From assembly GCA_001724265.1 (NCBI GenBank), contig MEDY01000196.1, forward strand, positions 1-53,833: 53,833 nucleotides of DNA, given 5' to 3'. This stretch comes from Rhizaria sp. SCN 62-66. Its lineage: Eukaryota. Positions 3,081 to 50,063 of this stretch are shown in pieces. A program made the translations under genes and the position numbers. How positions within the stretch are numbered: the first letter of the stretch is position 1; each line of letters opens with the position of its first letter. Under the pieces are notes generated by a model. It was given only the letters and a program-made list of their open reading frames with translations, was not told the origin of the DNA and did no database searches.

Positions 3081-6000
3081 TTACGTAAGCGCGAGCGTGC
3101 GCTTCGGCGGCGGCGCCAGCGGCTTCGCGGCGGCCGCGAGCAGCGCCGCCTGTTCGCCGACGCTCTGGTCGAAGCGGCTCGTGCCCCAGTAGCTGAGCTG
3201 CTCGACGGGCAGCGCCTCGATGCGCTGCCACCGCGCCGCCGCCACGGCGCCGTCGCGGTCACCGCCGCGCACGAGCCCGGCGACGATGCGCGCGTTGGGC
3301 GCGCCGCCGCCGGTCATGAGCCCCGTCGCGGTCACCGCGGAGGCCTCGTCGCCGGCATCGACGGCGCCGCCGGCACCGCTACCGGCGCCGTTGCAGCCCA
3401 GACCGAGCCCGGTCTCAGCGCCGGCGCCTTCGAGGGCCGCCAACGCCGCTAGCGCGGCCGCGCGCGAGAGGGCAGAAGTGCCAGCGCCGCCGTTGGCCCG
3501 CGAGCCGCCGTCGCCGCCCGCGTTGCCGCTGGAACTAGCGCTGGCGCGGGCCGAGGCGGCGGCGTCAGCCAGCGCGGCGGCCACGGCGTTGGCTCTGTTC
3601 GCCGAGCCCCCCGAGAGGCCCAGCAGCGCGCCGGGCCCGCTGCGCAGCGCCGCGCGGTTGTCCGCGGCCTCCGCGGCGGACATCGCCGTCGAGTTCGCAG
3701 AGGCGCGCGCCGCCGCAGCGCTGCCCGCGGGCAAGGGCGCCGTCTTCGCGTACCGGGCTGCGTACAGAGAGCCAGTGCCGGCGCCGGTGTTAGCCTGACC
3801 TCGGTGACTGTGGCCGTGCGCAGAGTGCGCGTGCGAGTGCGCAGTGGCGGCGCGCTCGGCCTCGGCGCGCGCGCGCGCTCGTGCGCCGACATGCGCGGGC
3901 AGCGCGGAACCGGACCCGTGGAGCGCGTGTTCGGCGGCTTCGGTGTAGGACGTCACCGGCTGCGACAGCAGCGAGGCCCACGCCGCCAGCGGCACCGCGT
4001 GCGCGCGTCCCGAGGCCACCGCGGCGGCAATCGAGCTCGCCGAGGGAGCCTTGACTTGCGACTGCAACGCAGAGGTGCCACGCCTCTTGGGCGCAGAGGC
4101 CGCCGCCGTCGTCGTCGTCGTCGTTGTTGTCGTCGTCCCGGACGTCGAGGTAGAGACAGAGGTCGATGCGTCAAGATCGAAGCGCGATAGCACGACTTTG
4201 TGGTTGCGGCGGCGGCGGAAAGCGACAGCGGCGTCGCCCTCGGCGTCCACTTCCGCAGCGGCAGCAGCGGCGGCGGCAGTCAGCGTCAGCTTCGAGTCGC
4301 CCTCGCTCCGCATCGTGTTGCCCGCGGACAGCGACGCGCGCGCAAACGTGCCGCCGACGCCGCCGCTGTTGCTGCTGCGTGCGCCGCCACTGCCCGCAGC
4401 GGTCGTTTGCGGCCGCGACGGCGCGTGCCTGAAACGAGCACTGCCGTCCTTGTGCGACGGAGCGGCAGTCACAAACGCGAGGTTGCTCGCGGCGATGGCC
4501 TCGGCCGCGGCACGTCTAGCCGCCGTGGCTGCGGCGGCGGCGACGGGATCGAGCACGACCGCGGCCAGCTCGCCGTCCTCGGCCGCCAGCGCGCCCGCCG
4601 CGGCCACGCCCACCGCAGCGGGATCCATGCCGCGCTGCAGCAGCGACAGCGAGTCCGTCACCGCGGTGGCGCGCGCGCGCGCGGCAGCCACGGCGGCGCG
4701 CGAGATGTGCGGGGGGGCACGCGCGGAGTCGCTGCCCGCCGCACCCGCTGCTCCTGCGGCGGAGGTGGGCGTTCCAGCAGAGGTGTGCTACCCGCTGTAG
4801 TGGCCGCGCACGGTGGCAGCGTGCCCGTGGCTGTGACCGTGGCTTTGGGCGTGTGCACTCGCCGCGGCGGCCGCGTACGGATGCAGCACTCCGACCAGCG
4901 CGGCTTCCTTGGCGGCCTCCGCCGCGGCGGCCTCGGCCTCGGTCGCCACGGGCCGCGCCGCGCGCGCAGGTGCCGTCGTGGGCTTGTAGCAGTAGGTCGA
5001 CACGAGCCCGGCGGTGCTGCTGCGGCGCCCGCGGCGGCTGCCGCTGCGGCCCAGAAACGGTGACGGCGACCGGGACCGCGGGCGCAGGCCGGCGGCGTCC
5101 GCAAGAGCAGTCGACGGCTGCTGCGCAGACGCAGCGGCAGCGACGGCTGCAGACACAGCGGCTGCCGTGGCAGCAGCGGCGGCGGCAGCGGCGGCGGCCT
5201 GCCTCCTGCGCTCCGCAGCCGCGGCGGCGTCGGCGGCGTCGGCGCGCCACTCGGCGGCGTTGAACACGTACACGGCGGGCTCCGTCGGCGCTAGCGCCAG
5301 CGGCACGCCCGTGGCGCCGTGCACCGGCACCGGCGCCGCGCCGTGCCCCGCGCTCGCGCCGGCGACAGCGGCTGCAGCGGCTGCAGCGGCCGCCGCAGAG
5401 GGCGCGGCTGCCGCGGCGCTGTTGCGCGTCTGGTGCTGGTGCAGCGCGCGCGCCTGCTCCCGCTGCCGCTGCGCCGCGGCGCGCCCGCCCCGTGGTGCCT
5501 GCGCAGCCACGGCCGACGTCGACGTCGCGGCGGCGGTGGCGGCCGAGGCCGCGGTATGCGTGCGCGTGAACCGCGTGGCGAAGGAGATCTGCTGCCGCAG
5601 CGCCGCGGCCGCTGAGCGGTCCGTCATGGACCAGCGCTCGATCGCGCCTACCTCGCCCGACTGCAGCACGGACCACAGCGTGGCGTGGCCGTCGTGCGTC
5701 GGGACAGCAGCGCCAGTGCTATTACTCGTGCCGGAGAGCGCGGTTGCCGCCGGCGTTGCAGCGGGGCCGTAGTTGAGCGCGGGTGCGGTGCCAGGGCGAG
5801 CGTGCGCGGGCGCCTCGACTGGCAACAACCCCGGCGGCGGCAGCGGCGGCACGAGCGGGTGCAGACGCTGAAGCTTCGCCACGTGCGGCGCGCGGGGAGT
5901 CGCCGCCGTCGCCGCTGTCGCCGTCGCTGTCGCTGCGCTCGCCGTTGCGAGGGTTGTTGCGCCGTCCCAGGTGAGCGCGGGCGCGTCGCCGTCGCTGGGG

Positions 6001-7651: not shown

Positions 7652-7689
<38 letters not shown>

Positions 7690-8504
7690 TCGGTGTTGGC
7701 GCCGGGGATCGAGGCTGGCAGCAGCGGCTGCGTGGGCCGCACCAGCGGCAGCGGGTTGTGCGCCAGCGCGGTCGCCATCGCCCCGCGTGCCACGGCGTCC
7801 GTGGAGGCGAAAACCCCGGCGCTGCTGAGCGCGAACTGCTGCTGCTGTTGCTGTTGTTGCTGGAGGCTGCGCCCATGGCGCGCGCGCGCCTGTTTGCGCA
7901 GCGCACGCTCCCGCTTCGCATCATCGTCGCCGCTGCTCTCCGCGTCGCTGGCGCCGTCGCTGCCCGCGCTTGCGTCCGCGTCCGGGTCCACGTCGTCTCT
8001 GTGGCCGGCGGCAAGCGCCGACGCGAGCAGCGCCGGGTCGGGCTCGAGCAGGCCAAACGGCCCCGGCCCGGTCAGACTGTGCTCTGCGAAGACACCGCCG
8101 AGGTCATCATTGGTATCATGACTGTGACTGTAGGGCCGGCTCGCCTACCGCGGTTGCTGCAGCTACATTTGGCTTTGATTCCCCTGTTGCTGCTGGAGCA
8201 GCGGCTTGTACGCCAGCGGCTGCGGCCCCGCCCCGGCGGCGCTGAGCGCGGCGGCGAGCGCGGGCGAGCCGGGCACGGGCGTACGCGCGAGTGTGCGCCT
8301 CAGCGCGCGCTCGGAGGTCTTGATCACGGGGGTGAGGGGAAGCGCCGCACCGGCGCCGCGGGCCGTGATGGGGCCCGCGCGCGGCGGCCCCGTGGCCCAG
8401 GCCGCCTGGCCGAGCGGGAGCGACGAGATCAGCGAAGCCGAGGGGCGGCGCGCGCTGCCACCGCGGGAGGTGTGGGGGCGAGAGAAGCCAAGGAGCGGGG
8501 ACGG

Positions 8505-8546
<42 letters not shown>

Positions 8547-16609: not shown

Positions 16610-18964
16610 TCAGTCGCTGTCGCCGGCCTCGCGCTCCGCCTCGGGGTGGCGGTACGGCGCGAGGTCGAGCGTGAGCAGCGCAGACGACTTGGCGGTGTCG
16701 TTGCGGTACACGCCCATGAGCGCGTCGGCCTCGCTGTACAGCGCGTCCTTGAGCGAGATGACGATGCACTGCAGCGGCGCCTCGGCCTCGGCTGCCGCCG
16801 CCGCGCTACGCCGCGCGCTGCCGCCGCCGGCCAGCGCGGCCGCGGCGGCGCCCAGCCCCGTGACGGCGCCCGACGCGCGCGCGCGCAGGTAGGCTGCGAC
16901 GCGCGAGACGTTGTACTGGTCGAGCGCGGCGTCGACCTCATCCAGCACGAAGAAGGGCGCCGCGCGGAACGAGTGGATCGCGAACAGCAGCGCCAGCGCC
17001 GCCATCGTCTTCTCGCCGCCCGAGAGCTGCGACACGTCGCGGAAGCGCTTCTGCGGTGGCGTCGCACTGTAGATGACGCCGCCCTTGTAGGGCTCGTCCG
17101 CGTTCTCGAGCGTAAGCTCCGCGCGGCCGCCGCCCAGAGGCTCGCCGGAGGGCCCGACGCCCGCGGAGAGGATCTTGTAGATCGGGTCGATCGTGGCCGA
17201 GATGGCCGCGAAGGCGTCCAGGAAGAGCTTCTTGCGCTCGGCCTTAATGGCCTCGTACTCCTCGGTCGCGCGCTTCTGCGCCTGCTGGCGCTCGGCGAAA
17301 AGTTGCGCAGTGGCGCGGACTTTGTCGGCCACGTCCGCCTCGTGCTCGCTCGCGCGCGCATTGGGCGACATCGCCTCGATCTCAGACCACAGCTGCTGCA
17401 GACGCGCCTGCGAGGGGTTGATTGTCACAAACAAGCAAAAGAATAATGGTGAAAACAAAGAGGTTGCCAGAGAGTTTGTGCATGCATTATCGCATTGATG
17501 TTTTAGAATTAAAACGATTTCCATTGAATCCACAAGCATATCGAGATATATCCGAGAGTTTTACGTGTTTTGCGCATGTTACTATATGACGTACCAGATA
17601 CTTGCCCTTGAGGTCTTCGACCTCGGCCTCGGTCTGGAGCCCCGAGATCGCGGACTCGACGGGCAGCGTCGCGTAGTCGATCAGCACGGTCTCGTGGGCG
17701 CCGCCGCGCGTGCCGGCCAGCGCCGAGCCCAGCTCCGTCTCGGGCTGCGACGACGACGGCGCGCCGCTGTCGCTGCTGCTCGAGGAGCCCAGTGCCTCGG
17801 AGAGCGAGAGCGGGAACGACTGCGACAACGACTGATCACTCTCACCCTCGCTCTCCTCTTCCTCGTCGTAGTCGTAATCGTCGTCAGAGCCGCCGGCGCC
17901 GGGGGCCATGCGCGCGCGCTTACTGGGAGAGCCGACGCCGCCGCCGCCGCGCTTGTGCCCCTTGCCCTTGCGGCCGCCCCCCGCCTTCTTACTAGGGGGG
18001 GGCCGCGCGAGGGGCAGCGCGATCTGCTCCATGACTGCCTTGCGCAGCAGCTCGCCGCGCTCGGCCACGGTCTTGGCCATGCGCAGCCCCGCGAGGAGAA
18101 TCTCCTTGCGCTCGCCGGCGACCGCGGCCTCGGCGGCCTCGAGCGCGCCGCGCGCGGCCTTGAAGGCGGCCAGCTCCTCGGCGACCGCGGCCTCGGCGCC
18201 GCGGAAGGCGCCCTCGAGCGCCTGAATCGCGGCCTCGTGCTCGGTGATGCTGATGTCGAGCTTGCTCAGCGCCTTAAGCGCCGCCGCCAGGTCCGCCTTG
18301 GCCGCGGCCGAGCGCTTCTGCAGCGACGCCTGCGGGCCCGCGTCTTCGGCCAGCCTGGACTGCTCGTACGCCAGCTGTGCCTCGAGCCGCGACACCTGCA
18401 CCTGGAACTTGCCCAGACGCTCGCGCCGCGCGGCCGCCGCGCCCAGCTTCTCCTCCTCCCACGCCTTGAGCGAGGCCGCGCGCTGAGCCTTGAGGAAGGG
18501 CGCGAACCGCTGCGTCTCGACCGCCGTCGCATCCTTCTCGGCGCGCGCAAGCTTCTCCTCCACGGCGGCCTGTGCAGCGCGCGCCGCGGCGGCCTCGGGG
18601 CGCTTGCGCGTGTTAAGCTCCGTCTCCAGGGTCGCGACGCGCTGCTCGTAGATGGCAATCTCGCCGGCCAGGCGCGCGGCCTCGTCCTGCGCGACCGACA
18701 GCTTGGTCTGCAGCGCAGACACACGGTGCTGCAGCCGCCCGCGCGCGTCGCCGGCCGCAGCGCCCGAGACCGAGGTAAGGCGCGCCAGCTCCTCCACCAG
18801 CGTCTGCGTCTCTTCGCGCAGCTTCGCCACGGCCGACTCCGTGAAGCGGTCGTTGCCGCCCGCGGCGCGCGCGCCGCCAGTCATGTTGCCGGAGCGGTGC
18901 AGGACGGACCCGTCCAGCGTCACCACCTTGAACCGCTGCTGGCCGCCCGCGCCCGCGCCCGCGC

Positions 18965-18996
<32 letters not shown>

Positions 18997-21230
18997 CCGC
19001 CGCCGCCGTTGCCGCCGTCGTTGGCCTTGGCTTCGGCGAGCGAGCGCCGGAGGCGCGCGGAGCCGCCGCCGAACTGGAAGCGGCGCGCCTCGTCCATGTC
19101 GCGCGCCACGAGCGCGTTGCCGCAGGCGTACATGACGGCTTTCTTGTCGACCTCGGCGAAGGTGATGACGTCGAAGACGAGCTTCATGGTCGGGTCCAGC
19201 AGCCGGCGGAAGTGGTCTGAGGGCGGCTGCACGCGCAGCGAGCTCAGCGGCAGGAACGTCGCAATGCCCGCGCGCTGTCGCTTGAGGTAGTCCATGCACT
19301 TGAAGGCCGTCGCGTCATCGGTCACCACGACTGCGTCCAGGTCGCGGCCCAACGCGACAGTCACTGCACGGTTGTACTCATCGGACACGGGCCGGATGAG
19401 GTCCGCGAGCCGGCCGCGGATTTGACCCGGGTACAGCGCGCGCAGCGTCGCCAGCGAGTCGGCCAGCCGCGCCGAGCGCGCAGACTGCGCCTGATCCACC
19501 ACTGCGTCGCCCATCGCCTCATTGTTGGCCTGGGGAGGGGGCGAGAAACAGAGACAGCAAAATGCATGGGATATGCGCGGTATAAAAGATGTAAGTAAGA
19601 AGAGACAACATAATTCCATCAAAAATCAACATGTAGATAATGGTAACAAAGTAACATTTCAATTTGCGAATATTTCCTCAAATGAAAGCAAGACCAGCTG
19701 TCTCGAACGCACCTGGATGAGCTTGAGTAGCTGCTCCTTGCGCAAGGCGCCCGCGGAGCCGGCCTCGACGAGCGCAGCCAGCTCGGTCTCGGCCTCGCGC
19801 AGCGCGGCGCGCGTCTCCTCAGCGGTGCGCTCCGCGGCCGCCTTGCGGGCCCGCGCCCCGTCGCGCCCGTCGCGCACCGAGCCAAGGTTGCGCTCGACGA
19901 CAGCGACAAGCGCGTCGGCCGCGGCGGCCTTGTCCCCCGCGGCCGCGAGCTGCCGCCGCATCGCGCCCAGCGCCTCGCGCAGCGTCGCCGTCTCCTCCTC
20001 CACGCGCGTCTTGATCGCGTGATACTCGGCCAGAGTCGCCGCCGACACGCCACCGCCGCGCGCCGCCTCGGCCTCGGCCTCGCGCTCGAACCGCTCTTGC
20101 GCGCCTCGCAGCGCGGCCAGCTCGTCCCGCAGCGTCTTAAGCGCGGCCTCACGCTCGCCGCGGTGCTGCGCGAGCGCGGCGAGCTTGGCCTCGCACTCGC
20201 GGACCGTCCGCTGGAGAAACCGCGCCTGTTCGCCCTGCCGCGCCGCGTCGGGCTGCGCGGCCGCGATCGCGTGGCGGTGCTCGTTGCGCCGGCGCTCGAG
20301 CTTGCCCAGCGCGCGGCGCGCCTCGGCCAGCGCGCGCTGCCGGCCCTCGAGCGCCACCGTCGCCTCGGCCGCGGTCCGCTCGGCGGTGGACTGGCGCGCG
20401 CGCAGCGCGGCGAGCTCCTCGCGCGCGCGCGCCTGCGCCCGGTCCACGTAAAAGAGCTGAACCAGGTAAAACTCGTGCTTGAGCTGCGCGTGCTCGTCGA
20501 GCTTGGCGCGGAAGAGGCGCTCCTCGGTCACCAGCTCCTTGACCTGGCGGTGCTCTTTGTTCATACTCTGCCGCTGGCGGAAGACGTGTACGAAGGCGTC
20601 CTCGGCGGCGCGCACGCGGGCCTCGGCGTCGTCGTAGTCGCGCGCGCGGTCGGCCGAGCCCGAGACAACCTCGAGGAACTGCGCGAGCTGCTGCGGCGTC
20701 TTTTGCGCAACCAGTGCGACCTCGTTCTGCGGGACCAGGAAGTTGGGGAATGACTGGCCGCCGCCGAGGGATGAGCGCACCACGATCCCCAGCGCGCACA
20801 GGCGCTGCTCGTAGGTCTTCTTCGGCACCGTCACGCCGTCGACGGAGTATGTCGTCTCGCCAGTTGTCGTCGTGGTGGCCGCATTGTCGTTGTTGCTGTC
20901 AGCGGAGGGGACGGAGGGACGGGTGACGAGTTTGATGCTGCGGCGGAAGGCGGACTTGGAGCCGTCGGCGGCCTCGAAAACCATCTCGACGTAGGCCGTC
21001 GTGTTAGGCGTGTCATCGTCGGGCCCATAGACGTTGATGAGCTCCTTGACCTGCTCGGCGCGGATCTTGCCGGCCGCGACGCCCAGCACGAACGTGATGG
21101 CGTCCATGACGTTGGACTTGCCCGAGCCGTTGGGTCCAACGACGGCGGAGAAGTGCTTGAACGGACCGATCGTGTGCTTGCCGCGGTATGACTTGAAGTT
21201 GTACAACTCCAGGTGGTGGATGCCGCGCAT
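16610..21230 (-). CDS. SMC1: Cohesin subunit SMC1, 3 exons (21230-19713, 19529-17595, 17407-16610), ~1416 aa
   Basis: LELYNFKSYRG, Walker A GPNGSGKSNVMDAITFVLG, NFLVPQ, hinge LYPGQIRGRLADLIRP..ATFLPL..KVVTLDG..RSGNMTGG, PPQKRFRDVSQLSGGEKTMAALALLFAIHS, Walker B FFVLDEVDAALD, CIVISLK. GT-AG splicing joins the three ORFs in frame. Ends in TGA. Confidence 0.95.
17408..17594 (-). other. SMC1 intron 2 (187 nt, phase 0)
   Basis: CTG|GTACGT...CCCCTCGCAG|GCG; AT-rich; splicing restores the frame (KYL|ARLQQ). Confidence 0.85.
19530..19712 (-). other. SMC1 intron 1 (183 nt, phase 0)
   Basis: CAG|GTGCGT...CCCCTCCCCAG|GCC; AT-rich; splicing restores the frame (LIQ|ANNEAM). Confidence 0.85.
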
Positions 21231-29451: not shown

Positions 29452-31716
29452 TTACAGAGAAGGCTCCGAGTCTTGCACGAGCGCCTTGGCTCGCTCAAAC
29501 TTGGCCCTCTCCATCTCGCGCAGCTCCTTGCGCACGACTTTGCCCGTGGTCGTCATTGGCAGCGCCTCGATGAACTCAATGTGGCGCGGGAACTGATGCT
29601 GCGCCAACCGCGCGCGCACGAACTGCTGCAGCTCCGCGCGCAGTTCCTGCTTGCTTACGGCCGCGAACGCGGGCGCCAGCACAATGAAGGCCTTGACAGC
29701 CTCGCCGCGGATCTCGTCGGGCACGCCCACAACGGCAGCGTTGCCCACGGCAGGGTGCCGCAGCAGACAGCCCTCGATCTCGCTGGGCCCGATGCGGTAC
29801 CCTGCGGACTTGATCACGTCGTCGTTGCGCCCCACGTACCAGAAGTACCCGTCCCCATCGCGCCGCGCGAGGTCGCCCGTGAGCAGGTACCCGTTCTGGA
29901 CCTTCTCGCGCGTCGCCACGGGGTTGTTGAGGTACTCGAGGAACGCGACAGGGTGCGGCACGCGCACGCCGATGTTGCCGACGGCGCCCGAGGGCAGCGG
30001 CTGGCCCTGGTCGTCCACGATGTCGACCACGTGGCCGGGGATCGCGCGGCCCATCGAGCCCGGCCTTACTTCCGGGGAGAGCGACAGGTGAGGCTTTCCA
30101 TCTGCCGACACAGACACACCTTGCGATTTGCCATTGTTCAGGTTCGAGCAGTTGCCGATGACAAGGTTGCACTCGGTCTGCCCGTAGAACTCGTTCACGG
30201 TGACGCCGAGCGCCTCGACGCCCCACTGCAGCACGGCCTCGCCCAGCGTCTCGCCGCCCGACCCCACGGAGCGCAGCGCGAAGCGCCAGCGCTGCTGCGG
30301 GTTGGGCACCGCGCGCATCATCTTGAGCGCCGTGGGCGGCATAAACGCGTTGCGCACACGGTACTTCTCCAGCACCGCGAACGCCGCCTCGGGGTCGAAC
30401 TTGCGGAAGCGCTTGGCGACTACTGGCACGCCGTGATGCAGTGACGGCAGCAACACATCCAGCAGCCCGCCGATCCAGGCCCAGTCCGCGGGCGTCCAGA
30501 ACACGTCCTGCGGCTGCGGGAAGAGGTTCTGCGGAAACTCGACGCCCGGGAGGTGGCCTAGAAGCACGCGGTGCGCGTGCAGCGCGCCTTTGGGTGGGCC
30601 CGTCGTGCCAGAGGTGTAGATCACCAGCGCGGGGTCGTCCGCGCGCGTCGCCACGGGCGTAAACGAACGAGACGCGGGCGCAAGCAGCGAGCTTAGCGAC
30701 AACACCTCCAGCGGCTGCGGCGGCAGAGAGTCGAGTTCCGAGGGGGAGCGAGCCCCGCTGTCACCAGCGCTCGAGCTGCTGTTGAGCGCAGAGCTCGAGC
30801 TGCTGCTGCTGCTGCTGCTAAATGGGGGCGGCGGGGGCGGGTTGGCCGGCGTGAACGCAGACAGCGGCGCCGAGGAGATGACGTGGCGCAGCGCAGGCAG
30901 GCCCGCCGCCGTGCCCGTCGCACTAGAGCTGTTCGCGAGCGCAACGACCTCGTCCAGCTTGCCGGGCTCTGCAAACACTGCGACAGCGCCCGAGTCGCGC
31001 AGCCGGTAGTGCAGCGCGTCGGGGCCGAAGAGCACGAACAGCGGCACGGCCACGGCGCCGGCCTTATAGATGGCCGTGTGTATGATCGCGGCCTCGGGGG
31101 ACTGCGAGCACACCAGCGCGATGCGGTCGCCGCGCTTGACGCCGAGGCGGTGCACGAGCGCGTTCGCAAGCTGGTTCGACTTCTCGATGAGGTGGCCAAA
31201 GGTCATGGTAAACTCAAGCCCCAGCTCGTCGGAGTAGAGCACGGCGGGCGCGTCCCACTTGTCGGCCGCGTGCTTGTCGCTGATGTCTGCGCCCATGTTG
31301 TACATCGCAGGCGTGGGCATCGTGAACCCGGCGCACAGCGCGGCGTAGGACGGCGCCGACGCGGGCAGCATGCGGGACCGCGCGGGGTCGACGTAGGGGT
31401 TCGCGACCGAGGGGATGAGCAGACGGCGGCGCTGCTCCTGCTCCGGGGAAGTCACGGCCGGGGCAGCGTTGTCGGCGCAGTAGGCATTATTAGAATCGGC
31501 GGCGGGCGGCTTGGACACAGTAGAAGTGCTGAACGGGGAGCAAAGAGCGAGTGGTGAGATCAAATCACACAGACATAAGGTACCACTTGAAGCGAGAGCA
31601 AACGACCGAACACCAACGCTGGCAGTGTCAGCCGCTTTTGCAGTGACGGCGACAGTTCGAGAAACAACCGCGGCTGAGGAACGGGAAACGAGGTTGCGGC
31701 AGACAGAAGAAAGCAT
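29452..31716 (-). CDS. AMP-forming acyl-CoA synthetase (ANL superfamily) with a putative mitochondrial presequence
   Basis: YTSGTTGPPKG, WTPADWAWIGG, EFYGQTE, TGDLA, GRNDDVIKSAGYRIGPSEIE, LPMTTTGKV. The N-terminus is Arg/Ser/Ala-rich and acid-poor (MLSSVCRNLVSRSSAAVVSR..VRSFA). Ends in TAA. Confidence 0.93.
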   Translation of the reverse strand: MLSSVCRNLVSRSSAAVVSRTVAVTAKAADTASVGVRSFALASSGTLCLCDLISPLALCSPFSTSTVSKPPAADSNNAYCADNAAPAVTSPEQEQRRRLLIPSVANPYVDPARSRMLPASAPSYAALCAGFTMPTPAMYNMGADISDKHAADKWDAPAVLYSDELGLEFTMTFGHLIEKSNQLANALVHRLGVKRGDRIALVCSQSPEAAIIHTAIYKAGAVAVPLFVLFGPDALHYRLRDSGAVAVFAEPGKLDEVVALANSSSATGTAAGLPALRHVISSAPLSAFTPANPPPPPPFSSSSSSSSSSALNSSSSAGDSGARSPSELDSLPPQPLEVLSLSSLLAPASRSFTPVATRADDPALVIYTSGTTGPPKGALHAHRVLLGHLPGVEFPQNLFPQPQDVFWTPADWAWIGGLLDVLLPSLHHGVPVVAKRFRKFDPEAAFAVLEKYRVRNAFMPPTALKMMRAVPNPQQRWRFALRSVGSGGETLGEAVLQWGVEALGVTVNEFYGQTECNLVIGNCSNLNNGKSQGVSVSADGKPHLSLSPEVRPGSMGRAIPGHVVDIVDDQGQPLPSGAVGNIGVRVPHPVAFLEYLNNPVATREKVQNGYLLTGDLARRDGDGYFWYVGRNDDVIKSAGYRIGPSEIEGCLLRHPAVGNAAVVGVPDEIRGEAVKAFIVLAPAFAAVSKQELRAELQQFVRARLAQHQFPRHIEFIEALPMTTTGKVVRKELREMERAKFERAKALVQDSEPSL

Positions 31717-32233: not shown

Positions 32234-35200
32234 TTACATCTGCGGCACTACGCCCTCGTTGTCGCCATAACCGGGCCACGCAACGTGGACATACCCGCGC
32301 TCGACGACCGGGACCGCCGCAGAGGCCGGGAACACCGGCGCCGGCTCGCCTTTGACCGTGGGCGAGTTGACCTTGTTGTCACTGGCATGAACACCATCAG
32401 TGATGTGAGAGATCGCGGTCGCGCTTGTCCCGTTGTTCACAGAGGGACTGGGAGCAGCCGCAGGCGATGACAACGCTCCCCACATCATCGCGGCCACCGC
32501 GGCGCCCATGTCCCGCGGCTTGACCGCGCCCCCCACAGCCACACCGCTGCCGTTGCCGCCGCTGCTGCTGTTGTTGCTGTTGCTGTTGTTGCTAAGGGAA
32601 TCCGCCGTAGTCGCAGCGGTGTGAGAGGCGGGAGCGAGGCGGACAATGCCGCCGGCGAGAGCAGACCCGCCCACGCAACCGCTGTCGCTGATGTCAGCAA
32701 CGGCAGCGGCGGCGGCGTCGGGGAGACGCGCGCGCGGCATCAGAAGCGCATACATGCTGCTGTCTGTGTTCACCGCAGTCCGCACGTTGACACTCGCGCT
32801 CGCGCTCGCACTCTGCGAGTGCAGCTGTGGGTCGGCGTGCGTCGGCGAGTGCGAGGGCGGAGTGGCCTCGGGGGCCATCGTCGTCTCCAGCGGCATCAGC
32901 GCAGACCGGGACGGCAGCGACGACTGAGCCGGCAGAGCGAACTGAGCCATCGAGCCACTCACACTGGCGTTATTGTCCACCACAGTCGTAGCCGCCGCTG
33001 CCGTGTTGTCGCGAGGAGCGGCGGAGGTACTTAGAGCCTTGTAAGTAGGCGCGGTGTACGGGACGTCGGGCGCGTACGCAACAACACTCCTGCCGCCAGC
33101 GGCGCCCGCGCGCGTCGCCACGGTTGCCGCGGCACTCACAGTGCTGGAGCTCACAGTGGCGGAGGTGTTTGAGGCGGGGAAAGCGCGCGCGCGGACGGGG
33201 GTAGGGGCAGTCACGGCCGCCATGCTCGACACGGCCGGCGGCAGCGCGGCATGAGGCGGTGGTTTGACGCTGTAGCCAAGCTTGCGGAGCAGCAACAGCG
33301 CCGAGGCGGCCTCGGCGCCCGCGCGCGCAACGTCGGCCGCCACCTCGGCCGCGGTCTGCACCGCGCCAAAGCCACTGGCGCTGGCACTGGCGCTGGCGCT
33401 GGCACTTGCAGGAGATTCAGCGGGAGCACCTGTCCCACTCGCACTGGGGGCGGCGGGGGGGATGGCGTTCGCGGCCGGGGGAGCGGCGACGGGCGACTGC
33501 GAGGCCGGCGGCACGCGCGCGCGGTAGCGGCCGGGCGTCACCGGAGCACACTCGGCCTGCTGCGACTATGATTGCGAGGGTGGCTGGGTCTGCTGGGCCT
33601 GCGAGTGGGCGGGTGGGCTCGCGCGCACCGGCGAGAGAGGTGGCGACTGCGCGCGCGACAGCGGCGGCGACTGCGCCCCAGAGAAGAGCGACCGCGGCGG
33701 CGACGAGGCCGAGATCAGCGTCGCGGGACGCAGCAGTAGCACTGGGCCCGCGCTCTCGTAGCCGCAGCCGTCGCCGCCACAGCCAGTTGTCGCAGCGCTG
33801 CGGGCGACGCTGGCTCTGACGGCGGCGACCGCGGCGGCAGTGGCGTTGCCGATGCTCGTGTTGTGGCCGTCGCCGCCGCCGAAAGCGTTTGTTGCGTGAG
33901 CGCTGCTACGGGCGGGCATGTGCGCCGCGGCGGCGGCCTTCGCTGCGGCAGCAACGGCAGGGTCGACGCCGCCCGCGGTGTAGCTGGCGTTCAGGCTCAT
34001 ACCCGTGTTCGTGTGAACATTAGCGTTGTTGTTGTTGACCGGCGTGGGGGCGCGACCGTGGGTTGACGCCAGCCCCGGGAGCGCCGGCCTCACCGACGAC
34101 GACGACGACGACAATGATGATGACATGTGCGGACCAATACCACTAGCACCAGTCGCGGCAGCCGCGGTGGCGGCGGTGGCGGCGGCGTAGGCGGCGGCGT
34201 AAACCGAGGCCGACACCGCGGGGCCCGCGTACGCAGGTACGGGCGCCGGCGGTAAGTGCCTCTGCAGAGGCTGCTGTTGCACATGCTGTTGCTGGCGGCG
34301 GAGCGCGGCTGCCGCCTCGGTGGCGTGCGCGGGCGCGGCCGTGAAGGGCGGCATGTGACGCGCCGCCGCGAGCGCCGGGGACAGCAGCGGCAGAGCCACG
34401 CGCGTCAGGACGTCGCCGCTGATGCCGCTCGCCACGGGCGGCGGCGGCGGCGCCAGCAGCACGGGCGCGGCGACCGAGCGCACGGTGGCCGACACCGGCG
34501 CGGGCGCTGTGTGAGCTGCTGCGGCGGCGGCGGTGGCGTGGGGGCCGGAGGCGGCGTGCCAGGCCAGCCAGGCGGGCAGGCTGTCGGGGCGGTGGACCGG
34601 GTGGCTCCAGTCAACTGCAAACACAGGCGCTGCCGCTGCAGCTGAGGCTGGGACTGACTGGGCGACTGCGGGAGCAGGAGCGAATGCGGGCGCCTGACTG
34701 TGGGCCGAGTGACTGTAAGCAGAGTGACCGTGGGCAGCAGTGGCGACGGCGGCAGGGTGACTGGAGGCAGTGGGCACAGCGGGGGCGTGCGAATAGCTGG
34801 CGTTAGCGTCTGTCAGTTGCGCTGCAAACTGCGCGCTTTGCGGGACTAACGGCGTGTACTGCGTCTGGAACGCCGAGTTGGACTGCTGCATCACAGCAGG
34901 CGTCTGCTTGAGCTGTTGTGTGAGATTCACAGCAGAAGGTGCAGCCGCCGGAGCAGCGTCAGTGTAGTGATAGTGCTGGTGGACTGCAGGCTGAGCGGCG
35001 GCCGCCGCCTTGGCGTGGGCCCACCGCTCCCGCATGCTCTCTGCGGGGCTCAGGATCATATTCACGGTGTTGGCCGCACCTTTTGCACCGTCACCGCGAC
35101 CGGCACCGAGCAGAGTGTTGCTGCCATAGCCACTGTATATGTTTCGGTACGCGTTGCCGTTGCCGCCGTAGGGCGTCGCCGCGGTGACCGCCGTGCCCGT

Positions 35201-37886: not shown

Positions 37887-40800
37887 ATGTCGCATAACTC
37901 CAATCCCCCCGGTTATAACCTCTCAGAGGGCGCACCTGCCGGCGGTGTGAGCACGGACCCATCGTCGACCAACACCAGCAACAACTACAGTGACGATATC
38001 GGCGCGCATGCCGGCGCCACGACCTCAGCAACGACCGCCGTCGCCGCGCCCCGCTCCATGGCCGCGTCCGCCCTTAGCGCGATTGCCCGCGTGCTGGCGT
38101 CGCTGCTGCGCCGCAGCCCCTTGGTTGCCGCGCGCGTTGCGGGTACGACGGCGGCCGCGGTCGCTGTTCTGGCGCTCGCCGTCCAACTCGTCCTGCGCTC
38201 GCGCCGGCTCACCGCGCACGTCATCTACCTGAACTGGCTGCACTTCCCCTGGCTGGACTTTGCGCGACCCGAGCGCGCGTCGTGCTTCGGCTTCTTCCCT
38301 GGGCTGCCCGCGACGCGCTTCGTGCCCGCGCTTTCGCCTTACACAGCCAACGCCGTGCCGTGCTGGGTCACTGCGCCCGCGCCACGGACGCTGCGCGTGC
38401 TCGCAGCAGGCGCGGCCAGCGACAGTAACATCAATAGCAACAGCTATAGCGTTAGCAACAACAAGAGCGACGACGAAGGCGAGACTTGCAACAAGTTCGC
38501 GAGTGACACTGCGAGTGCTTCGACTCCACCGTCGCAGTCCCAGTCCTAGTCGCTCCCCCGGTCGACTGTGCTGTCGATCCCGTGGGCGAGCGACCCCGAC
38601 CGGCCCTTACCGGCCCCCGAGCACCTCTTTGCGGACCCCTTAGACCGGCCCGTGGTCGTCTACTTACACGGCGTCTGCTCGCACCGGGCAGAGATGCACC
38701 GCTCGCTGCTGTACACATTCCTCTCCGCGCCCCACGCGGCCGCGGTTGTGCCCAAGCCCTTTACACAGGCGCAGTCGGAGTCGGAGTCGGAGTTGCGTTA
38801 TGATGCGGAGACTGAGTATGCGGAGACGGCTGCTCAGAGGGGGCCGTTGCAGCGGTGTCCGGCCCCCTTCGCCTTCCCTCCCACTGGCGTCCCCTCGACT
38901 GCTAACCACAACATCAGTAACGCTTACCAGGCAGCGCCGCCTGCGGTCTCCGCGCCCACAGACAGCGACAAGAGAGAGGCCGCCCAGGCGCTGGCGCAGT
39001 CGCTGGCCGTGCTCCGCGCCGGCTTCTGGGCCCTGCCCGCCAGGCTCTCGGGCGTCTTCGCCCCGCACGCCACCGCGGTGCCCGTGGAGGCGCCGAACGC
39101 GTTCGTGGTGTCGCTTGACTACCGCGGCTTCGGCGACAACACGCACTCGCGTCGCGCCTGGCTCCAGGGCCGCGCGCAGGACTACAATGCGCGCGCGCAC
39201 ACGGCGCGGCCCGACGGAGACGACGGTGAAGACGACGACGAGGGGGACTCTGCTGATGCGACCACAAACACTGCACATATGAAGAGCGCGAGCGCCGCAG
39301 CGGAAGAGCAAGATCTGTGTTTCAGCGACTATTTCAACCCTCCGATTGCGCAGCCGCGCTCTTCACCGTCACAGAGCGACAGCTGCGCCTTCACCGCGAC
39401 TGCTACGAAGGACCGCGCCGACTTGGCGCCCGTGGGCCCCGAGCGCGCCCCGTTCACGGCCGCGGGCTTTGTGCCGCCGCCGCGGCGCCAGCGTGCGGGT
39501 CTGGCGGTCCCGGCGCCGCTGTCGCACGCGCGCGCGCGGGCGCTATGGGGGCGCAGCCCCATGTTCGACCCGCGGCTGCTGTGGCCGCGCAGCCCCGCTG
39601 CTGGACGCTCTGCGGGTCGTAACGCCGGTTACGCTGCGGAGTCCTCAGCTGAGGGTGCTAAGACTGAGAGCGACAGCGGTGCTGGTGCAGGCTTCGCGGT
39701 CCCGCTCGGCGGGCGCGACGGCGGACGCTCCCCCACTGCCATCGCGGCCGCCGCGGCCACGGTGGCGACCGCAAAGCCGGTCCCGTGGTTTGTCGCAGCC
39801 CCGCTGGCGGCGCTGGCGGCGGCCGCGAGCGTGCTGCTGCCGCCGTTGCGCGCTGCCCTCTCGGCTAACTCGGTTCCCGCCCCGCTTCGCACCTCAACCA
39901 ACGCGCACGCACACGCACACGCGGGCGCGAGCACAGTGACTGCGACGGCGACGGCGACCGCGACGGTGACGTCAATCGTGACCGCGACGGCGGACGCGAC
40001 TGGGGCAGTTACGCAGACGCAGACGCAGACCGCGCAGACCGTGACCGTGACCGCGACAGCGGACGCGGCCGTCCCGTCCCCGGGCTCCGAGGCGCCGACC
40101 CCCGCCGGCCTACTATGGGACGCGCTCGCGGTGTGGGACTGGCTGACGGTGACGTGCCGCGTGCCGCCGCACCGTATCGTGCTGGCGTCGCACTCGCTGG
40201 GCACGGCCGTGGCGGCCAAGCTAGTCGACGCGCTGGCCGAGCGGGCGCACGCCCTCGCTGACCCCGCGCACCCGGGACACGCGTGCGCGTGCAAACACTG
40301 CGTGGCGCCCCGCTTTACGCAAAGCAACGCAGCAGCAACAGCAGCGACGCCGGCGAGCACTGAGGTCGCAACACCGCAGGCGTTGGTGTCGGTCGAGAGC
40401 TTGCGCTCCGACGGTGTGATCACCACGCAGTCGGCCTACACGCGCTGGGCGGCGGCCGAGCTGCTGCCCGCGGGCGTGGTGCTGGAGGCGCCTCTGCTGT
40501 CGCTATCCTCGGTGGTGCGCGACATGCCGCTGCTGCAGCCGTTGCTGGCGCTGAACAATCCATTCCCGTTCAAGATCAAGCTTCCCGCGCCGCCGAAGCT
40601 GCCGCCGCTGCCGCCGCTGCCCTCGCTACCGCGTCTGCCCTCGCTCGCGCGGCTCCAGCGCCTCTCGGGGCTGTCGTCGCTGTCCTCGCTGCCGGCGTTG
40701 CCGTCGCTGGGGCAGATCCGGCGCAGGCTGCGGCGGCAGCCGACGCTCACGCCGGCCAGCACGAGCGGCCGCCCGCGGGGCGACGGTGCTGCCGGCGCCG

Positions 40801-44897: not shown

Positions 44898-45164
44898 TAA
44901 CATCTTTTTACTGTGTCCCGACGACAGCAAGATCATGTGACGGTGAAGTTCATTCATCGAATCTTGTTTTACATTAGTTTCTATCATTACAATAGTGAGC
45001 TCAATATAATTGTGAGTAAAAATAAAGATTTATTATCATGACGTTAATTTTAGAGAATTATAATTTTTTAAAGATCATTTAAATTGGTTGAGATTCGTTG
45101 CATTTTTTATTGTATTTTCAGTGTTTTATTCTTGCCGTTACAAAGTTTGATGGTCCAAAGAAGT

Positions 45165-48100
45165 TTAAACCAGAATATCCCTCCGCGGCCGACGCACGCT
45201 TCCAGTTACCTTATCCTTCTCTGCGCGCATTCTTTCCAGCATCTTGTGCAACTCAGCGTCGACATTCTCATATCTGCTGCGCCGCCCGCTTGCCAGCGCG
45301 CGCGAGATCGACCGCTCCAGAGCGCGCGCGCGTTGACGGGCACGTGCGCGTTCAATCTTTTCACGGCGCTGCGCTATGCGCTGCAGCCGCGCTTCTGTGC
45401 TTGCATGGCGGCGGGGGTGCGGACCCCTGTAACGCGTTGTCCCAACGTTGCGATCCACGGGCACGCTTTCGATGCGAGGACTTGGACGACGATCAACAGT
45501 GAGGTCGTCCTAGTCAGCAGCCATTACTGTGCGTCTCACAGTTCGTGTCACTCCGCCACTGCTGTGGGCGCGCGTGTTATCATTGCCACGGACGTTTTCA
45601 GTGCCAACGTCGACTGGTGCGGTCGTTCCGCGAGGGCGGCGGAGCGCGCGCACCTCGTTGCGGCGCTCCAAGAGCACTCGGCGCGACTCGGCAGCAGCGT
45701 CGGCGGCGGATGTGAAACGCAGCTCAATATTTTGTCCGCGCCATGTACCTGTGCGTGTACGTGGCAGTCCCCTGCTTGCTCCTGAAACAGCGTCTGAGAA
45801 TGCACTCGTTGCAGTGATTGGACTTGTACCGGGCACAATTCTCAGCGAGACAGAGCGACTCGATGACGCACTTTCTAGCTCACGCTCAAGCGCTCTACGT
45901 CTCATCACAGTTGCGAGCGCACTATTACGGGTCGCTCGAGAACTTGAGCTGACGGGGTCAGCCTAAGGAGCGCGGTGAGCGCGAGGTGCGCGCTGCCGCC
46001 TTGCTGCTGCTGCTGCTGTTCCAGCGGGAAGCGAGGCACGACTGATAGGAGGCCGCGACGTTGTGGCCATTGTTGTTGAGACTGCGGGTGTTACAGTTAA
46101 TGTAGATGCCACCGATGAAGTATCTGGAGTTGTAAATATGACAGGAAGTGCGGTGCCACGCGTACGAGAAGCTGACGGTTGTGCCTATGTCCGGGGGCTT
46201 GTCGGGCTTGCACGACCCACACGAGCTGCAGAAGTCACACTTGTTATAGCTGATGCGGCTGTCGCATTTACAGGTGCATTGATAGGGCACACACCGTTAT
46301 TCTCATCGTCTTCTGCATCTTCTGCATCTTCTGCTGGGTCTGCTGCTGCATGGCATACGTCCCCGTTAGGAGACACTTCAGTCGCAGGCACATTCGGAGT
46401 CGGAGTCCGTGATGTCTCGCCCGATCCAGTTGCTGTGGAGCTAGCGTTGGTGCTACGACCGGTACTGGAGCTAGAGCTTGCCGGGGGAGTCACTGAAGGC
46501 CGTGGCGTGGTTGCGGGTTTCTCAGCAGCCGCAGCTGCAGCAGCGGCTGCAGCCGCGCGGCTCCGGAGACGCTCACAGTGCGCATGCCTCTGCAGCTCGC
46601 GGCGCCACTGCCTGCGTCCAGCACGGCCACCGGGGAGATACGTGCCGTCGGCAGCGCGGTTGCGCGATGACGGCGGCAGTGGACATTTGTCAACGTCTTT
46701 ACGCTTCTCTTTCTCTTTCTCTTTCTCCTTCTCGCTTGACTTATCTTTTTGTTTCTCCTTCTTCTCCTTGTCCAAAGCAATGTTAATTGACACATTTGCC
46801 AGTGGTGTATGGCGAGATGGGGGCACCGTCGGAGCAGAGACTGCTGCGGCGGGAACCGACACAACTGCTGTTGCAGTGATGACGACAGCAGCTGGTGCAG
46901 CCGATGGTTGCGAACGTGGTGAGGATGACACCGCTGCATTGCTAGTGTTGCTGTTACTTGTACTGATTACTGCGGTACGAGGCACCTACATTGTAAACGT
47001 GCGCATTGCTCGCCCACGTCGAGGCTGCATTGCGCCACTGTTTGCCCTGCGCACAGTGCGAAAGGGTGGTTGCGTATTAGGCCTTAAATTGCGGCTGTTG
47101 CTGTAGTAAATCTGATGCGGCACATACGCACTCAGTGCATCGTAGAAGCGGCAACATCCACCCTTCACGAGGTTGGTCGGGGTTAAGCAGCACGTGCGCG
47201 CATTAGTCATTGCGTTTTGTAGTGCAAGCGTTGCAGCGTACCCGCTGCGCATTGCGTAAACCGCGTTCAACGCGTCTTGACTCGAGTACCCAAGTGACCG
47301 CAGCGCGAGCCGCACATCTAACGAGTTTAGCACATAATCAACACTGGAGGGAATTGTTGGGTAGTAGTATGGTTGAGGTTGCGGCTGCGGAGGTGGGGGC
47401 GGCGGAGGCCGGGGGCGTGGGTGGGGCTGCGGGCGAGGCCTGCGGTCATCGGGGCGCGGTTGCGGCGGGCGCGGCTGTGGCTGCGGGGGACTTGGCTGAG
47501 GTGGACGCGGCTGCGGCGGATTTGGCTGTGGGGGATTTGGCTGCGGAGGGTTCGGCCGAGGCGGATTTGGCTGAGGCGGTCGCGGTTGTGGCCGTGGTGG
47601 GCGGCGGTCATCAGGACGCGGGCGCGGCTGCGGCGGACGTGGCTGCGGCGGGCGGGGCTGCGGGCGCGGACGGCGGTCGCCAGAATGATGGTGGCGATCG
47701 TCACCCAAAGGACTGCGGTCAGCGACTAAATTGTTTGAAACCTCACTGCTCACAGTTGCTTGCGCAGAGGTAACACTTTGAGGCAAGGCAACATTATCAT
47801 TGAGGTCTGAGTTGTCGCTTGCAGGAGAACTCCTGTTGTTGTCAGCGTCACGATTGGTAATGTTGCTAGTGTCCGTGATGGCACTATCAGTAAAGTGACC
47901 ATAGCTGATCGTATTACCGTTGGAGATGTCACCACTTGTATCAAACAACAGGCCACTGTGCTCGTTATTAGAGCGATAATCATATGTGTTCTCATTGCCA
48001 CTAATAATATCGTCTCGAAGTGACATCACACGAACTTCACGCCCGCGGCTGCGCGCATGTTCCGGTGCCTCAGAGCGACCGTGAGCATTGCTTGCACTCC

Positions 48101-50063
48101 CGCGCTCAGCATCTTTCGCAATCTTTTCGATCGCTGAGCTCAGTTGGCAGCACCCGCGGCGCACGCGCTTATTACGGTCGTTGCCGCAGCAGAAAGTTAG
48201 CGCGCGCCTGGCCTCACGCGCTTGACGCGACAGTGTAAGAGAGGGGTTGCGTTTCATCGCAATCAATGCTATGCGTGCGCGTGCAGGGTCAAGTCCGATT
48301 GCATTAAGTCCGGGAATCATACTCGGCGTTAGTATCGGTGATGCTCCGTGGACACCAGTTAAACCCGCTGCTAAGGCAGTTGAAATTGCCGACATGATTG
48401 ATGACGAGTCACGACCGCTACTATCAAGTAGGCTGATAAAATTTGGTCTTGAGCTAGACTACAAGGTACTAACCCGACGACCACGCGCCTTAAAGCGATC
48501 TATAGGAGCCCGCTCATCGCGCTTAGCGGCGCTTTCAAGAACCATAAGCAGGTTAGATGGGTTGGAGTCGGCGCGGAAACGATTCAAAAAGGAACCCTGC
48601 ATCGGAACAAGATACAACCACATCTGCTAAGGATTGTGCTATTTTTGATTGGTACTATGCATGGGCGCAGGCTTGAGGTTAGCGGAATCGGTTGCCGCCA
48701 TCCTGACCTTATTGCTGCCTGAACTTGTTGCAGGGCTAGTGGCAGCCGAGGTCAGCTTGTCTTTCGGCTTGTTTGTGGATGCAGTGCTTGCAGTCGGGGT
48801 TGTTGTCGTCGCTGAAGGTGGTACAGACGTTAATCGTGTTGCCCTCACTCGGGACCCACCACGTGTTTCAGCCTTGGGCTTACGCGTGCTTTCACTCTTG
48901 CTCTTGTCACTTTTACTGTTATCCTTGTTCTTGTTGATAGCGAAGTGACCACGAGCACCAAACGAGCCTTGTCCCGCAATAGCACCAGCTGGGTCATGCG
49001 CAAACTGCAGCGCTCTGCGCCCGCGCTCAATGTCCGCATTTTGCCTGCGCTTTACCTTCCGCGCCCGTCTCTCCTCAGCCGCAGTGATGGCCGCAGTCAG
49101 GTCGACGCCGCCGCTGCTGACGTGGCCACGGCTGGCGTGTCCGCCGAGCGCGGGCACGCGCGCGCCAGCGTCAACTGCGGCGGCGACAGCCACAGCGCGG
49201 GGCTCGGGCGCGGGAAGAAAGAGACGGCGCGCGAGCGTGCGGGCAGCGGCGGGGAGCGCAGAAAGCGACGGCAGCGAGATGTACTGCAGGAACCCACTCT
49301 TTTCGTTCCCGTCGCTGTTACGACCCGGGCGATAGCTCGCCGCGTCTGCCAAATCTAGCGCAGCACTTGCAGGGGCTGCGCGCGACGCAAATGCAACCGC
49401 AGCAAGTGTTGCTGATGGCGCCAAGACCAGTCGGCGCGCGTGGTATTCATTTGGCAAAATCGGTGTAAAGCCTGCTGTTGCGCACTTCGAGTGGCTCATC
49501 TTGAGATTTTTGTCATGAGCAGAGTTTGAAGCCTGCAGAGCGCAAAGACAGACTTCAGAGTTTGCAGGGCAAGCGCAAAACTCGTTGCACTTGGATTGGT
49601 ATACAGTGGGCGATGTGTGCTTTGTCGCTGCGACGGTGGCAGCAGCGGATACACTCGCGACGGGGGGACGCGTGCATCGGCCGTTTTTGCGACGATACGT
49701 GCCGCGCGGACATGCAAGTTGAGCAAGGTTAACATGAGAATGCGGCTTTGGGCGCGGCCCAGATGTAGCAGGCTTAGCAGGGTTCTTGGGAGGCGGCGGC
49801 TTCAATGCGCCTTGCGAGGGAGTAGGGGTGGAAGTCGGAGCAGTCGTTGTTCTGGCCTCCCTGGCTACAATGCAAGTGACAGCAAAAGATAGCGTGAGTC
49901 AAGTTATAAAAATAATAAGAAGAGTACTTCAATACACACTTACATGTTGCAACGTACTTGAAGTCGTTGAAGGGGCTGGCTTGGAGGCGTCTGTCGGTGG
50001 ACCCGAAAGCGCAAGCACAACTTGAAGTGCGAATGCGCACAACAAAAGGCGTAGCCACGCCAT
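45165..50063 (-). CDS. Putative secreted ~1601-aa Cys/Pro/Ser/Thr/Arg-rich protein, 2 exons (50063-49958, 49864-45165); 7 in-frame TAG codons
   Basis: Exon 1 encodes signal-peptide-like MAWLRLLLCAFALQVVLALS. ORFs 48639..49805, 46986..48395, 46185..46985, 45510..45908 and 45165..45464 are one frame broken only by TAG (48639, 48627, 48459, 46986, 46185, 45963, 45510). Terminal TAA at 45165 lies beside AT-rich DNA. Confidence 0.72.
47375..47680 (-). repeat. Imperfect 15-bp tandem repeat encoding (P-Q-P-R/N-P)n
   Basis: RPQPRPPQPRPPQPRPRPDDRRPPRPQPRPPQPNPPRPNPPQPNPPQPNPPQPRPPQPSPPQPQPRPPQPRPDDRRP in the translation. Confidence 0.9.
49865..49957 (-). other. Predicted intron (93 nt, phase 1) of the secreted-protein gene
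   Basis: A|GTACGT...TTGTAG|CC; AT-rich; joins the signal-peptide exon in frame (PSTTSTREARTT). A nearby GTAAGT donor would not keep the frame with this acceptor. Confidence 0.6.

Follow-up and report, generated by a model that had tools for sequence, protein, structure and literature searches.

Introduction

UAA and UAG (together UAR) are both read as glutamine under NCBI translation table 6, which is used by many ciliates, hexamitid diplomonads, Ulvophyceae, Streblomastix and Amoeboaphelidium. In other nuclear codes the two codons differ in meaning, and the excerpted text of PMC11687900 names about eight of these. UAG alone is reassigned in the rhizarian exLh (Sainouroidea), where it encodes leucine, and in Iotanema spirale (Fornicata), where it encodes glutamine (PMC5304391, excerpted text). 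According to the same excerpts, exLh uses UAA (56) and UGA (15) as stops and has 384 UAG codons in 71 transcripts, mostly at conserved leucine columns (PMC5304391). The excerpts of PMC11687900 add Protocruzia tuzeti, Hartmannula sinica and Trochilia petrani (UAG=Gln, UAA a stop), three phyllopharyngean ciliates from TARA (UAG=Leu) and the green alga Scotinosphaera (UAG=Ser), and in the ciliate PL0344 UAA encodes lysine and UAG glutamate (PMC11687900 and PMC10553269). Here we examine a 53,833-nucleotide (nt) stretch of DNA, contig MEDY01000196.1, which we call the window and in whose positions all coordinates are given. We conclude, with a probability of about 0.85, that TAG is a sense codon in the organism and that TAA and TGA are its only terminators.

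The window resembles the UAG=Gln group (Iotanema, Protocruzia, Hartmannula and Trochilia, as described in the excerpted sources) in combining in-frame TAG codons with TAA as the commonest terminator and TGA as the second. UAG is scarce as a sense codon, as the excerpts report for Iotanema, and the Q/S-rich context of several window TAGs fits glutamine. Unlike that group, the organism is a GC-rich, intron-bearing flagellate of wastewater reactors, is not a ciliate by gene structure, and has an IFT46 protein that falls among rhizarian sequences. With exLh it shares the stop set (UAA/UGA 56/15 in the excerpted exLh data, 8/4 here), and the supergroup may be the same, given a weak IFT46 grouping (89/64). 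In contrast to the exLh codons of the excerpted account, the 14 UAGs in 14,862 codons here include none at a conserved column or in a hydrophobic context. UAG and UAA differ in meaning as they do in the excerpted descriptions of PL0344 and Scotinosphaera, but UAA is a sense codon in PL0344 and a stop here; neither serine (Scotinosphaera) nor glutamate (PL0344) is favoured by the context of the window TAGs. As in the UAR=Gln codes, a stop has turned into a sense codon, a mutated tRNA-Gln being the probable route; unlike in those codes, TAA is a stop. Because the window shares the defining pattern of the published UAG-only reassignments, the class is already known and the organism adds a case to it. 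An earlier note on this DNA had listed Iotanema, exLh and a few ciliates as the decoupled cases; those it named are in print, and the list is incomplete, since the excerpts of PMC11687900 contain further UAG-only codes.

TAG lies in frame in six genes

When TAG is taken as sense, the open frames of the window merge into six long ones:

3081-10397, minus strand, open frame with 3 in-frame TAGs
23391-26888, plus strand, open frame with 1 in-frame TAG
27440-29188, plus strand, open frame with 1 in-frame TAG
32234-37453, minus strand, open frame with 1 in-frame TAG
37815-44897, plus strand, open frame with 1 in-frame TAG within the coding sequence
45165-49898, minus strand, open frame with 7 in-frame TAGs

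The earlier note had counted 14 in-frame TAGs in 6 genes, and every coordinate, strand and frame was reproduced: all 14 read TAG on the coding strand (3 on the plus strand, 11 on the minus strand) and all are in frame. They are given below with the protein context where it is informative, an underscore marking the TAG:

4788..4790, minus strand, TAG in the ankyrin-repeat gene, GHYSG_HTSAG, followed by 568 codons without TAA or TGA
8145..8147, minus strand, TAG in the ankyrin-repeat gene, LQQPR_ASRP
8163..8165, minus strand, TAG in the ankyrin-repeat gene, NQSQM_LQQP
25986..25988, plus strand, TAG in the UFSP2 gene, ~92 codons upstream of the Peptidase_C78 domain
27806..27808, plus strand, TAG in gene 27500-29188, DNDD_NDDV
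33566..33568, minus strand, TAG in gene 32234-37357, PSQS_SQQA
38547..38549, plus strand, TAG in the alpha/beta-hydrolase gene, SQSQS_SLPR, after the N-terminal membrane segment and before the HG motif
45510..45512, minus strand, in-frame TAG in gene 45165-49499, D_DD
45963..45965, minus strand, in-frame TAG in gene 45165-49499
46185..46187, minus strand, in-frame TAG in gene 45165-49499
46986..46988, minus strand, in-frame TAG in gene 45165-49499
48459..48461, minus strand, in-frame TAG in gene 45165-49499
48627..48629, minus strand, in-frame TAG in gene 45165-49499
48639..48641, minus strand, in-frame TAG in gene 45165-49499

All 14 lie in non-conserved, disordered stretches. A fifteenth in-frame TAG (37881-37883, plus strand) stands two codons before the hydrolase ATG at 37887, and was left uncounted because it belongs to the leader and not to the coding sequence.

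Openness by itself is weak evidence, because at 70-76% GC non-coding frames also stay open over long distances. The two other coding-strand frames of the six TAG-bearing genes contain 17-80 TAA and TGA triplets per gene, against 0 in the coding frame. In the ankyrin-repeat gene (2,438 codons) the off-frame counts are 25 and 33, and in the hydrolase gene 32 and 43, with 0 in both coding frames. The frame at 45165-49898 (1,577 codons, GC 0.58) separates the three triplets: TAG occurs 7 times in frame and 9 and 15 times off frame, whereas TAA occurs 0 times against 15 and 29, and TGA 0 times against 23 and 51. About 59 in-frame TAA and TGA codons were expected there and 0 found; selection bars TAA and TGA from this frame, but not TAG. 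Since off-frame stop counts are high and the in-frame count is zero, the pattern is far beyond chance.

The stretch free of TAA and TGA after each TAG extends over 114 to 2,115 codons. For TAGs 4788, 25986, 27806, 33566 and 38547 it measures 568, 299, 459, 443 and 2,115 codons, respectively, and at off-frame stop rates the chance of each of these five runs is about 5e-3 or less. The phase of the G+C content at third codon positions (GC3) is the same before and after the TAGs in the five GC-rich genes. In the 40-codon flanks of the 14 TAGs, GC amounts to 0.47-0.82, compared with 0.40-0.45 in three introns and 0.29-0.48 in nine spacers; the TAG flanks thus resemble exon, not intron or spacer. 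The frame that the earlier note had described as open and coding-like after each TAG keeps its periodicity and flank GC, and contains no TAA or TGA.

TAA and TGA end the gene models

Twelve gene models were built in the window:

1297..2385, plus strand, IFT46 gene, IFT46_B_C E=7e-71, no TAG, ends TAA
3081..10346, minus strand, ankyrin-repeat, Ala-rich gene, 2,421 codons, 3 TAGs, ends TAA
11186..16240, plus strand, transglutaminase-core/IQ open frame, no TAG, ends TGA, start not fixed
16610..21230, minus strand, SMC gene, 3 exons, no TAG, ends TGA
21855..22778, minus strand, HAD IIIB acid-phosphatase open frame, no TAG, ends TAA
23565..26888, plus strand, UFSP2 (Ufm1-specific protease) gene, 1 TAG, ends TAA
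27500..29188, plus strand, gene without assigned family, 1 TAG, ends TGA
29452..31716, minus strand, AMP-binding enzyme gene, no TAG, ends TAA
32234..37357, minus strand, low-complexity gene without assigned family, 1 TAG, ends TAA
37887..44897, plus strand, alpha/beta-hydrolase-like gene with long inserts, 1 TAG, ends TAA
45165..49499, minus strand, gene without assigned family, 7 TAGs, low GC3, ends TAA, start tentative
50461..53304, minus strand, NEK-like protein kinase gene, 3 exons, no exonic TAG, ends TGA

Eight models end in TAA, four in TGA and none in TAG. These counts agree with those of the earlier note, which had also placed the ends at the edge of AT-rich spacers; GC drops at each end, from 0.52-0.85 over the final 60 nt of the gene to 0.24-0.50 over the 150 nt that follow. 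At the end of the hydrolase gene (44895-44900, plus strand) TAA stands in tandem (TAA TAA).

The spliced models (12 genes, 14 exon blocks) comprise 14,862 codons with 14 TAG, 0 TAA and 0 TGA. Internal TAA or TGA codons as frequent as TAG, a finding that the earlier note had named as a refutation, were tabulated as 0 and 0 against 14. Among the GC3-rich genes UAG makes up 0.5 of every 1,000 codons; in the single gene biased towards A or T at third positions (the AT3-biased gene, 45165-49499) the figure is 4.9. The earlier statement that no gene needs an internal TAA or TGA holds once four AT-rich GT..AG introns, two each in the SMC and NEK genes, are removed, and fails if they are retained:

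19530..19712, minus strand, SMC intron, 183 nt, GT..AG, GC 0.40
17408..17594, minus strand, SMC intron, 187 nt, GT..AG
53118..53262, minus strand, NEK intron, 145 nt, GT..AG, GC 0.43
52708..52928, minus strand, NEK intron, 221 nt, GT..AG, ends ..ccctag, GC 0.45

All four contain in-frame TAA or TGA, and GC is 0.40-0.45 in the three that were measured. The N-terminal, hinge and C-terminal parts of SMC are spread over three exons (21230-19713, 19529-17595 and 17407-16610), and the TGA and TAA that close two of the exon frames are both intronic. The NEK kinase exons span 53304-53263, 53117-52929 and 52707-50461.

Four TAA-ending genes were compared with their homologues at the C-terminus. The HAD gene reaches its TAA 1 residue past the end of the Pfam profile. 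The UFSP2 protein ends in ..LPQRPRALQL, that is, QRP plus 5 residues, where 12 homologues have QRP plus 3. IFT46 and its 73%-identical relative P0023 run 16 and 17 residues beyond the last aligned residue, and homologues of the AMP-binding enzyme align up to residue 752 of 757. Because these four genes end at homologous C-termini and in-frame TAA is absent, TAA is a genuine stop. Were TAA decoded in the same way as TAG, the NAA/NAG ratio of each gene would predict 5.4 in-frame TAA codons, 4.2 of them in the AT3-biased gene alone; 0 were seen (P about 0.004). A tryptophan-like TGA beside TGG would be expected about 14 times in frame, and was also seen 0 times; TGA is the commonest off-frame stop triplet.

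Homologues and independent assemblies across TAG

A search with hydrolase residues 72-471 against 1.84 billion representatives found 6 proteins. Two of them are the window's own fragments: P0145 stops at TAG 38547, and P0144 begins after it. P0146, a single 400-residue open reading frame from a JGI metagenome, aligns across TAG 38547 in one BLASTP alignment (query residues 26-331, with the TAG at 150; E=3e-68; 44% identity over 322 aligned columns), which extends from a membrane-proximal motif (..RSRRLTAH.IYL.WL.FPWLDF..) to the HG motif (RPVVVYLHG). P0148, an ordinary 360-residue hydrolase, gives a collinear match on both sides of the same TAG. Since both proteins cover the two halves that flank TAG 38547, the halves form one gene. 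Where the window goes on, P0146 continues as non-homologous sequence, possibly an intron in the relative.

In the UFSP2 gene, TAG 25986 precedes the catalytic domain (E=4e-49). No in-frame ATG intervenes between this TAG and the catalytic Cys motif; the first one to follow the TAG comes 225 codons later, within the domain itself. Upstream of the TAG, hhalign with 12 homologues aligned the catalytic domain only (flank E=0.19). The search for UFSP2 relatives found none closer than 49% identity.

Contigs of other assemblies were matched to the window at 90% likeness, a procedure that also brings in noisy, low-complexity matches from other organisms. Logan contigs X2 and X3, assembled independently from other samples, cross TAGs 27806 and 33566 with 0 differences from the window; the two contig sets are identical and possibly represent one data set filed twice. 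A contig of a variant strain (X4) crosses TAG 38547 with 7 differences, of which the 6 listed all lie elsewhere. Over the whole window, the variant strain of X4 differs mostly in spacers (5 listed changes in 27131-27398 and 13 in 31847-32267) and little in exons, the pattern that purifying selection on coding sequence would produce. In run X5, poly(A) RNA contigs overlie exons that flank TAG 25986 on either side, as well as exons upstream of TAG 33566; the spacer bins 27005-27671 and 31674-32340 have zero depth in this run. No piece of any kind bridges TAG 25986 among the pieces listed.

Candidate residue at UAG

The sequence context weakly favours glutamine. TAG stands where CAG would fit in Q/S microrepeats at 38547 (TCC CAG TCC TAG TCG) and 33566 (CAA TCA TAG TCG CAG CAG), and in the Q-rich run at 8145/8163. 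Every one of the 14 contexts is hydrophilic, and two are acidic (D_DD at 45510 and DD_NDD at 27806). A neighbour-composition classifier trained on the window's own proteins, which ranked 20 residues, placed Gln first, followed at a distance of -0.3 log units by Pro, -0.5 by Tyr, -4.2 by Leu, -4.4 by Ser and -15.9 by Glu; at the 7 sites in GC-rich genes, Gln was ahead by 4.8. The power of this classifier is low: the correct residue came out on top in 46% of the trials with true Gln sites and in 15% of those with true Leu sites. The Q/S context is itself a weak guide, because a CAG-to-TAG transition in a tolerant disordered region leaves the same context whatever residue is inserted, and the P0146 alignment is silent on the amino acid because TAG 38547 sits in an insert. 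We put glutamine at roughly even odds; the other residues taken together (Glu, Tyr, Ser and so on) come next, and leucine, the residue used by exLh, is somewhat less likely than these.

Source organism and further features of the window

The window is gene-dense nuclear DNA of an uncultured, flagellated eukaryote, in which coding stretches of 58-76% GC alternate with spacers of 29-48% GC. Its Pfam families comprise IFT46, ankyrin repeats, a transglutaminase core with an IQ motif, SMC, HAD IIIB acid phosphatase, Peptidase_C78 (UFSP2), an AMP-binding enzyme and a protein kinase. Because an IFT46 gene is present, the organism builds a flagellum or cilium, which backs the word "flagellate" in the earlier note. 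The same DNA recurs in Logan assemblies built from the bioreactor and wastewater metagenomes of several studies, and in part in a poly(A) metatranscriptome of activated sludge. Scanning genome contigs with the IFT46 protein and a 53-nt exact window string gave no match, nor did a scan of viral contigs. Rfam found no other RNA families in the window.

The closest IFT46 relative among the matches listed, P0023, is 73% identical and occurs on 14 contigs in JGI and Logan data; the next matches are 41-54% identical. At least one related organism is present in the JGI and Logan metagenomes, represented by the IFT46 of P0023 and the hydrolase N-terminal region of P0146. An IFT46 tree was computed from 45 of the 120 listed matches (the 26 best and 19 with recognisable names); most of the other 75 were animal sequences or had no name. 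The window and P0023 share a long branch, weakly placed (89/64) as sister to Partenskyella, Bigelowiella and another sequence. All of these belong to a 21-row clade (100/99), made up otherwise of metagenome sequences without names, which is separate from the rows of stramenopiles, alveolates, euglenozoans and animals. This single-gene tree hints that the organism may be rhizarian.

The gene at 45165-49499, which carries half of all in-frame TAGs, has an overall GC of 0.58 and a codon bias opposite to that of all other window genes (GC3 0.28-0.55 vs 0.72-0.95). Its (PPQPN)-like units are encoded by a tandem repeat of 15 nt (47453-47678), and it also has two CC..GCC cysteine modules. Around 44500-50600 the repeat search detected this coding tandem repeat only and no terminal repeats of mobile elements, and a search for the gene among shorter proteins returned 2 self fragments and no relative. 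Metagenome-contig matches of the AMP-binding enzyme (29452-31716, minus strand) are 44-52% identical, many on prokaryotic-looking contigs of up to 2.2 Mb; among the 80 loci listed for contigs anchored on this gene, all at 44-52% identity, there is no close relative.

Discussion

Frame statistics, coding periodicity, homology across one TAG, homologous C-termini and the TAA and TGA counts bear out the central claim of the earlier note, that TAG is sense and TAA and TGA are stops, whereas introns, errors and pseudogenes fit the data poorly. We weighed five other explanations, beginning with those that survive best. A dual meaning of TAG would accord with its rarity as a sense codon and with a sample of 12 gene ends only. 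We nevertheless regard it as improbable, as TAG ends 0 of the 12 genes and the 14 sites have no common downstream context (next base C in 4, G in 5, A in 2 and T in 3).

Equally improbable in our view is a standard code in which the TAGs are removed by short in-frame introns or changed by U-to-C editing. The genome does have introns, one of which ends in ..TAG, none of the RNA contigs listed bridges a TAG, and TAG 38547 falls in a segment inserted with respect to P0146. However, the real introns are 145-221 nt long, AT-rich and interrupted by in-frame TAA or TGA, and nothing alike surrounds the TAGs, whose flanks (GC 0.47-0.82) keep the coding periodicity and contain no other stop. The GT..AG pairs around TAG 38547, located by eye, measure 35 and 47 nt, which are not multiples of 3, and 14 such introns would be needed, each with TAG only. 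We know of no U-to-C editing system of the required kind.

A code of the UAR=Gln type, with TAG and TAA both sense, TGA as the sole stop and TAA missing merely through GC-richness, seems very improbable. In 11 of the 12 genes A-ending codons are scarce (NAA/NAG 0.07-0.22), so few TAA codons are expected there. The AT3-biased gene, however, combines an NAA/NAG ratio of 0.60 with 7 TAG and 0 TAA, and none of the 5.4 TAA codons expected in total was seen. Moreover, TAA closes 8 of the 12 genes where GC drops, four of them at homologous C-termini, and reading through the UFSP2 TAA would append 67 AT-rich codons. Codes in which all three stops are sense (the Condylostoma, Blastocrithidia and Amoebophrya types) do not fit the counts of 0 TAA and 0 TGA in the 14,862 codons.

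We assign a similarly low probability to the TAGs being errors or recent nonsense mutations, that is, pseudogenes or artefacts of assembly or sequencing. All TAGs do lie in non-conserved regions, and several resemble C-to-T changes of CAG in Q/S repeats. Each is followed, though, by 114-2,115 open codons with no frameshift; random nonsense mutations would yield TAG 43-70% of the time, so that 14 of 14 has a probability of about 2e-4; and 6 dead genes among 12 are unlikely in a compact contig. Other assemblies match TAGs 27806 and 33566 exactly, and the variant strain bridges 38547. The least probable explanation, in which TAG is an ordinary stop and the downstream frames are separate genes abutting in the same frame, would account for the splits made there by gene callers (database fragments P0001 and P0142-P0145), but no TAG adjoins a spacer (real ones measure 263-788 nt at GC 0.29-0.48), the frame is identical in 14 of 14 cases, the next ATG comes 225, 297 and 305 codons after TAGs 25986, 27806 and 46986, and P0146 and P0148 span TAG 38547 as one protein.

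Several observations weigh against TAG being sense with TAA and TGA as the only terminators. TAG is present in none of the six conserved genes (IFT46, transglutaminase, SMC, HAD, AMP-binding and NEK), and no conserved column coincides with a TAG site in the alignments made. Because no TAG falls at a conserved column, neither the amino acid nor the translation of the codon is directly demonstrated. At 38547, where homology crosses the TAG, the codon sits beside an alignment gap in a variable insert 26 residues longer than P0146, and among the pieces listed no RNA contig bridges any TAG. ATG directly precedes 3 of the 14 TAGs (8163, 25986 and 46986), although methionine makes up 1-2% of these proteins; this excess, noticed post hoc, is of marginal significance. 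The homology check of C-termini covered four genes, all of them TAA-ending, and a sample of 54 kb and 12 gene ends leaves room for an occasional TAG stop. Neither ARAGORN nor Rfam found tRNA genes in the window, and the eRF1 gene is not within the 54 kb.

If TAG is sense and only TAA and TGA terminate, ribosomes would insert an amino acid at UAG and end translation at UAA and UGA. By analogy with other UAG-only codes, the codon would be decoded by a cognate tRNA with the anticodon CUA, and eRF1 would have lost or weakened its recognition of UAG. By wobble rules, a CUA anticodon does not read UAA.

In the literature searched, with supplements outside the search, a UAG reassignment is reported for no cercozoan other than exLh and for no activated-sludge eukaryote. 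That the window represents an independent, undescribed UAG-only reassignment with low UAG usage, in a probably rhizarian flagellate of wastewater reactors, is a tentative proposal to which we give slightly less than even odds. If true, UAG would be a sense codon of recent origin, or one that is weakly decoded, in a genome whose GC pressure should favour UAG as a stop; the exons are 67-76% GC, yet UAA is the preferred stop.

Nuclear codes that split UAG from UAA are rare and bear on how eRF1 drops one UAR codon. Codon-capture theory holds that a stop codon first becomes rare under AT pressure and is then captured, and a GC-rich, free-living case tests whether AT pressure must make the stop rare before capture. 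If TAG is sense here, gene calling under the standard code splits the proteins of this organism in public metagenome databases, P0001 and P0142-P0145 being examples. If the organism is rhizarian, setting it beside exLh would show whether the supergroup reassigned UAG once or twice, and whether to the same residue.

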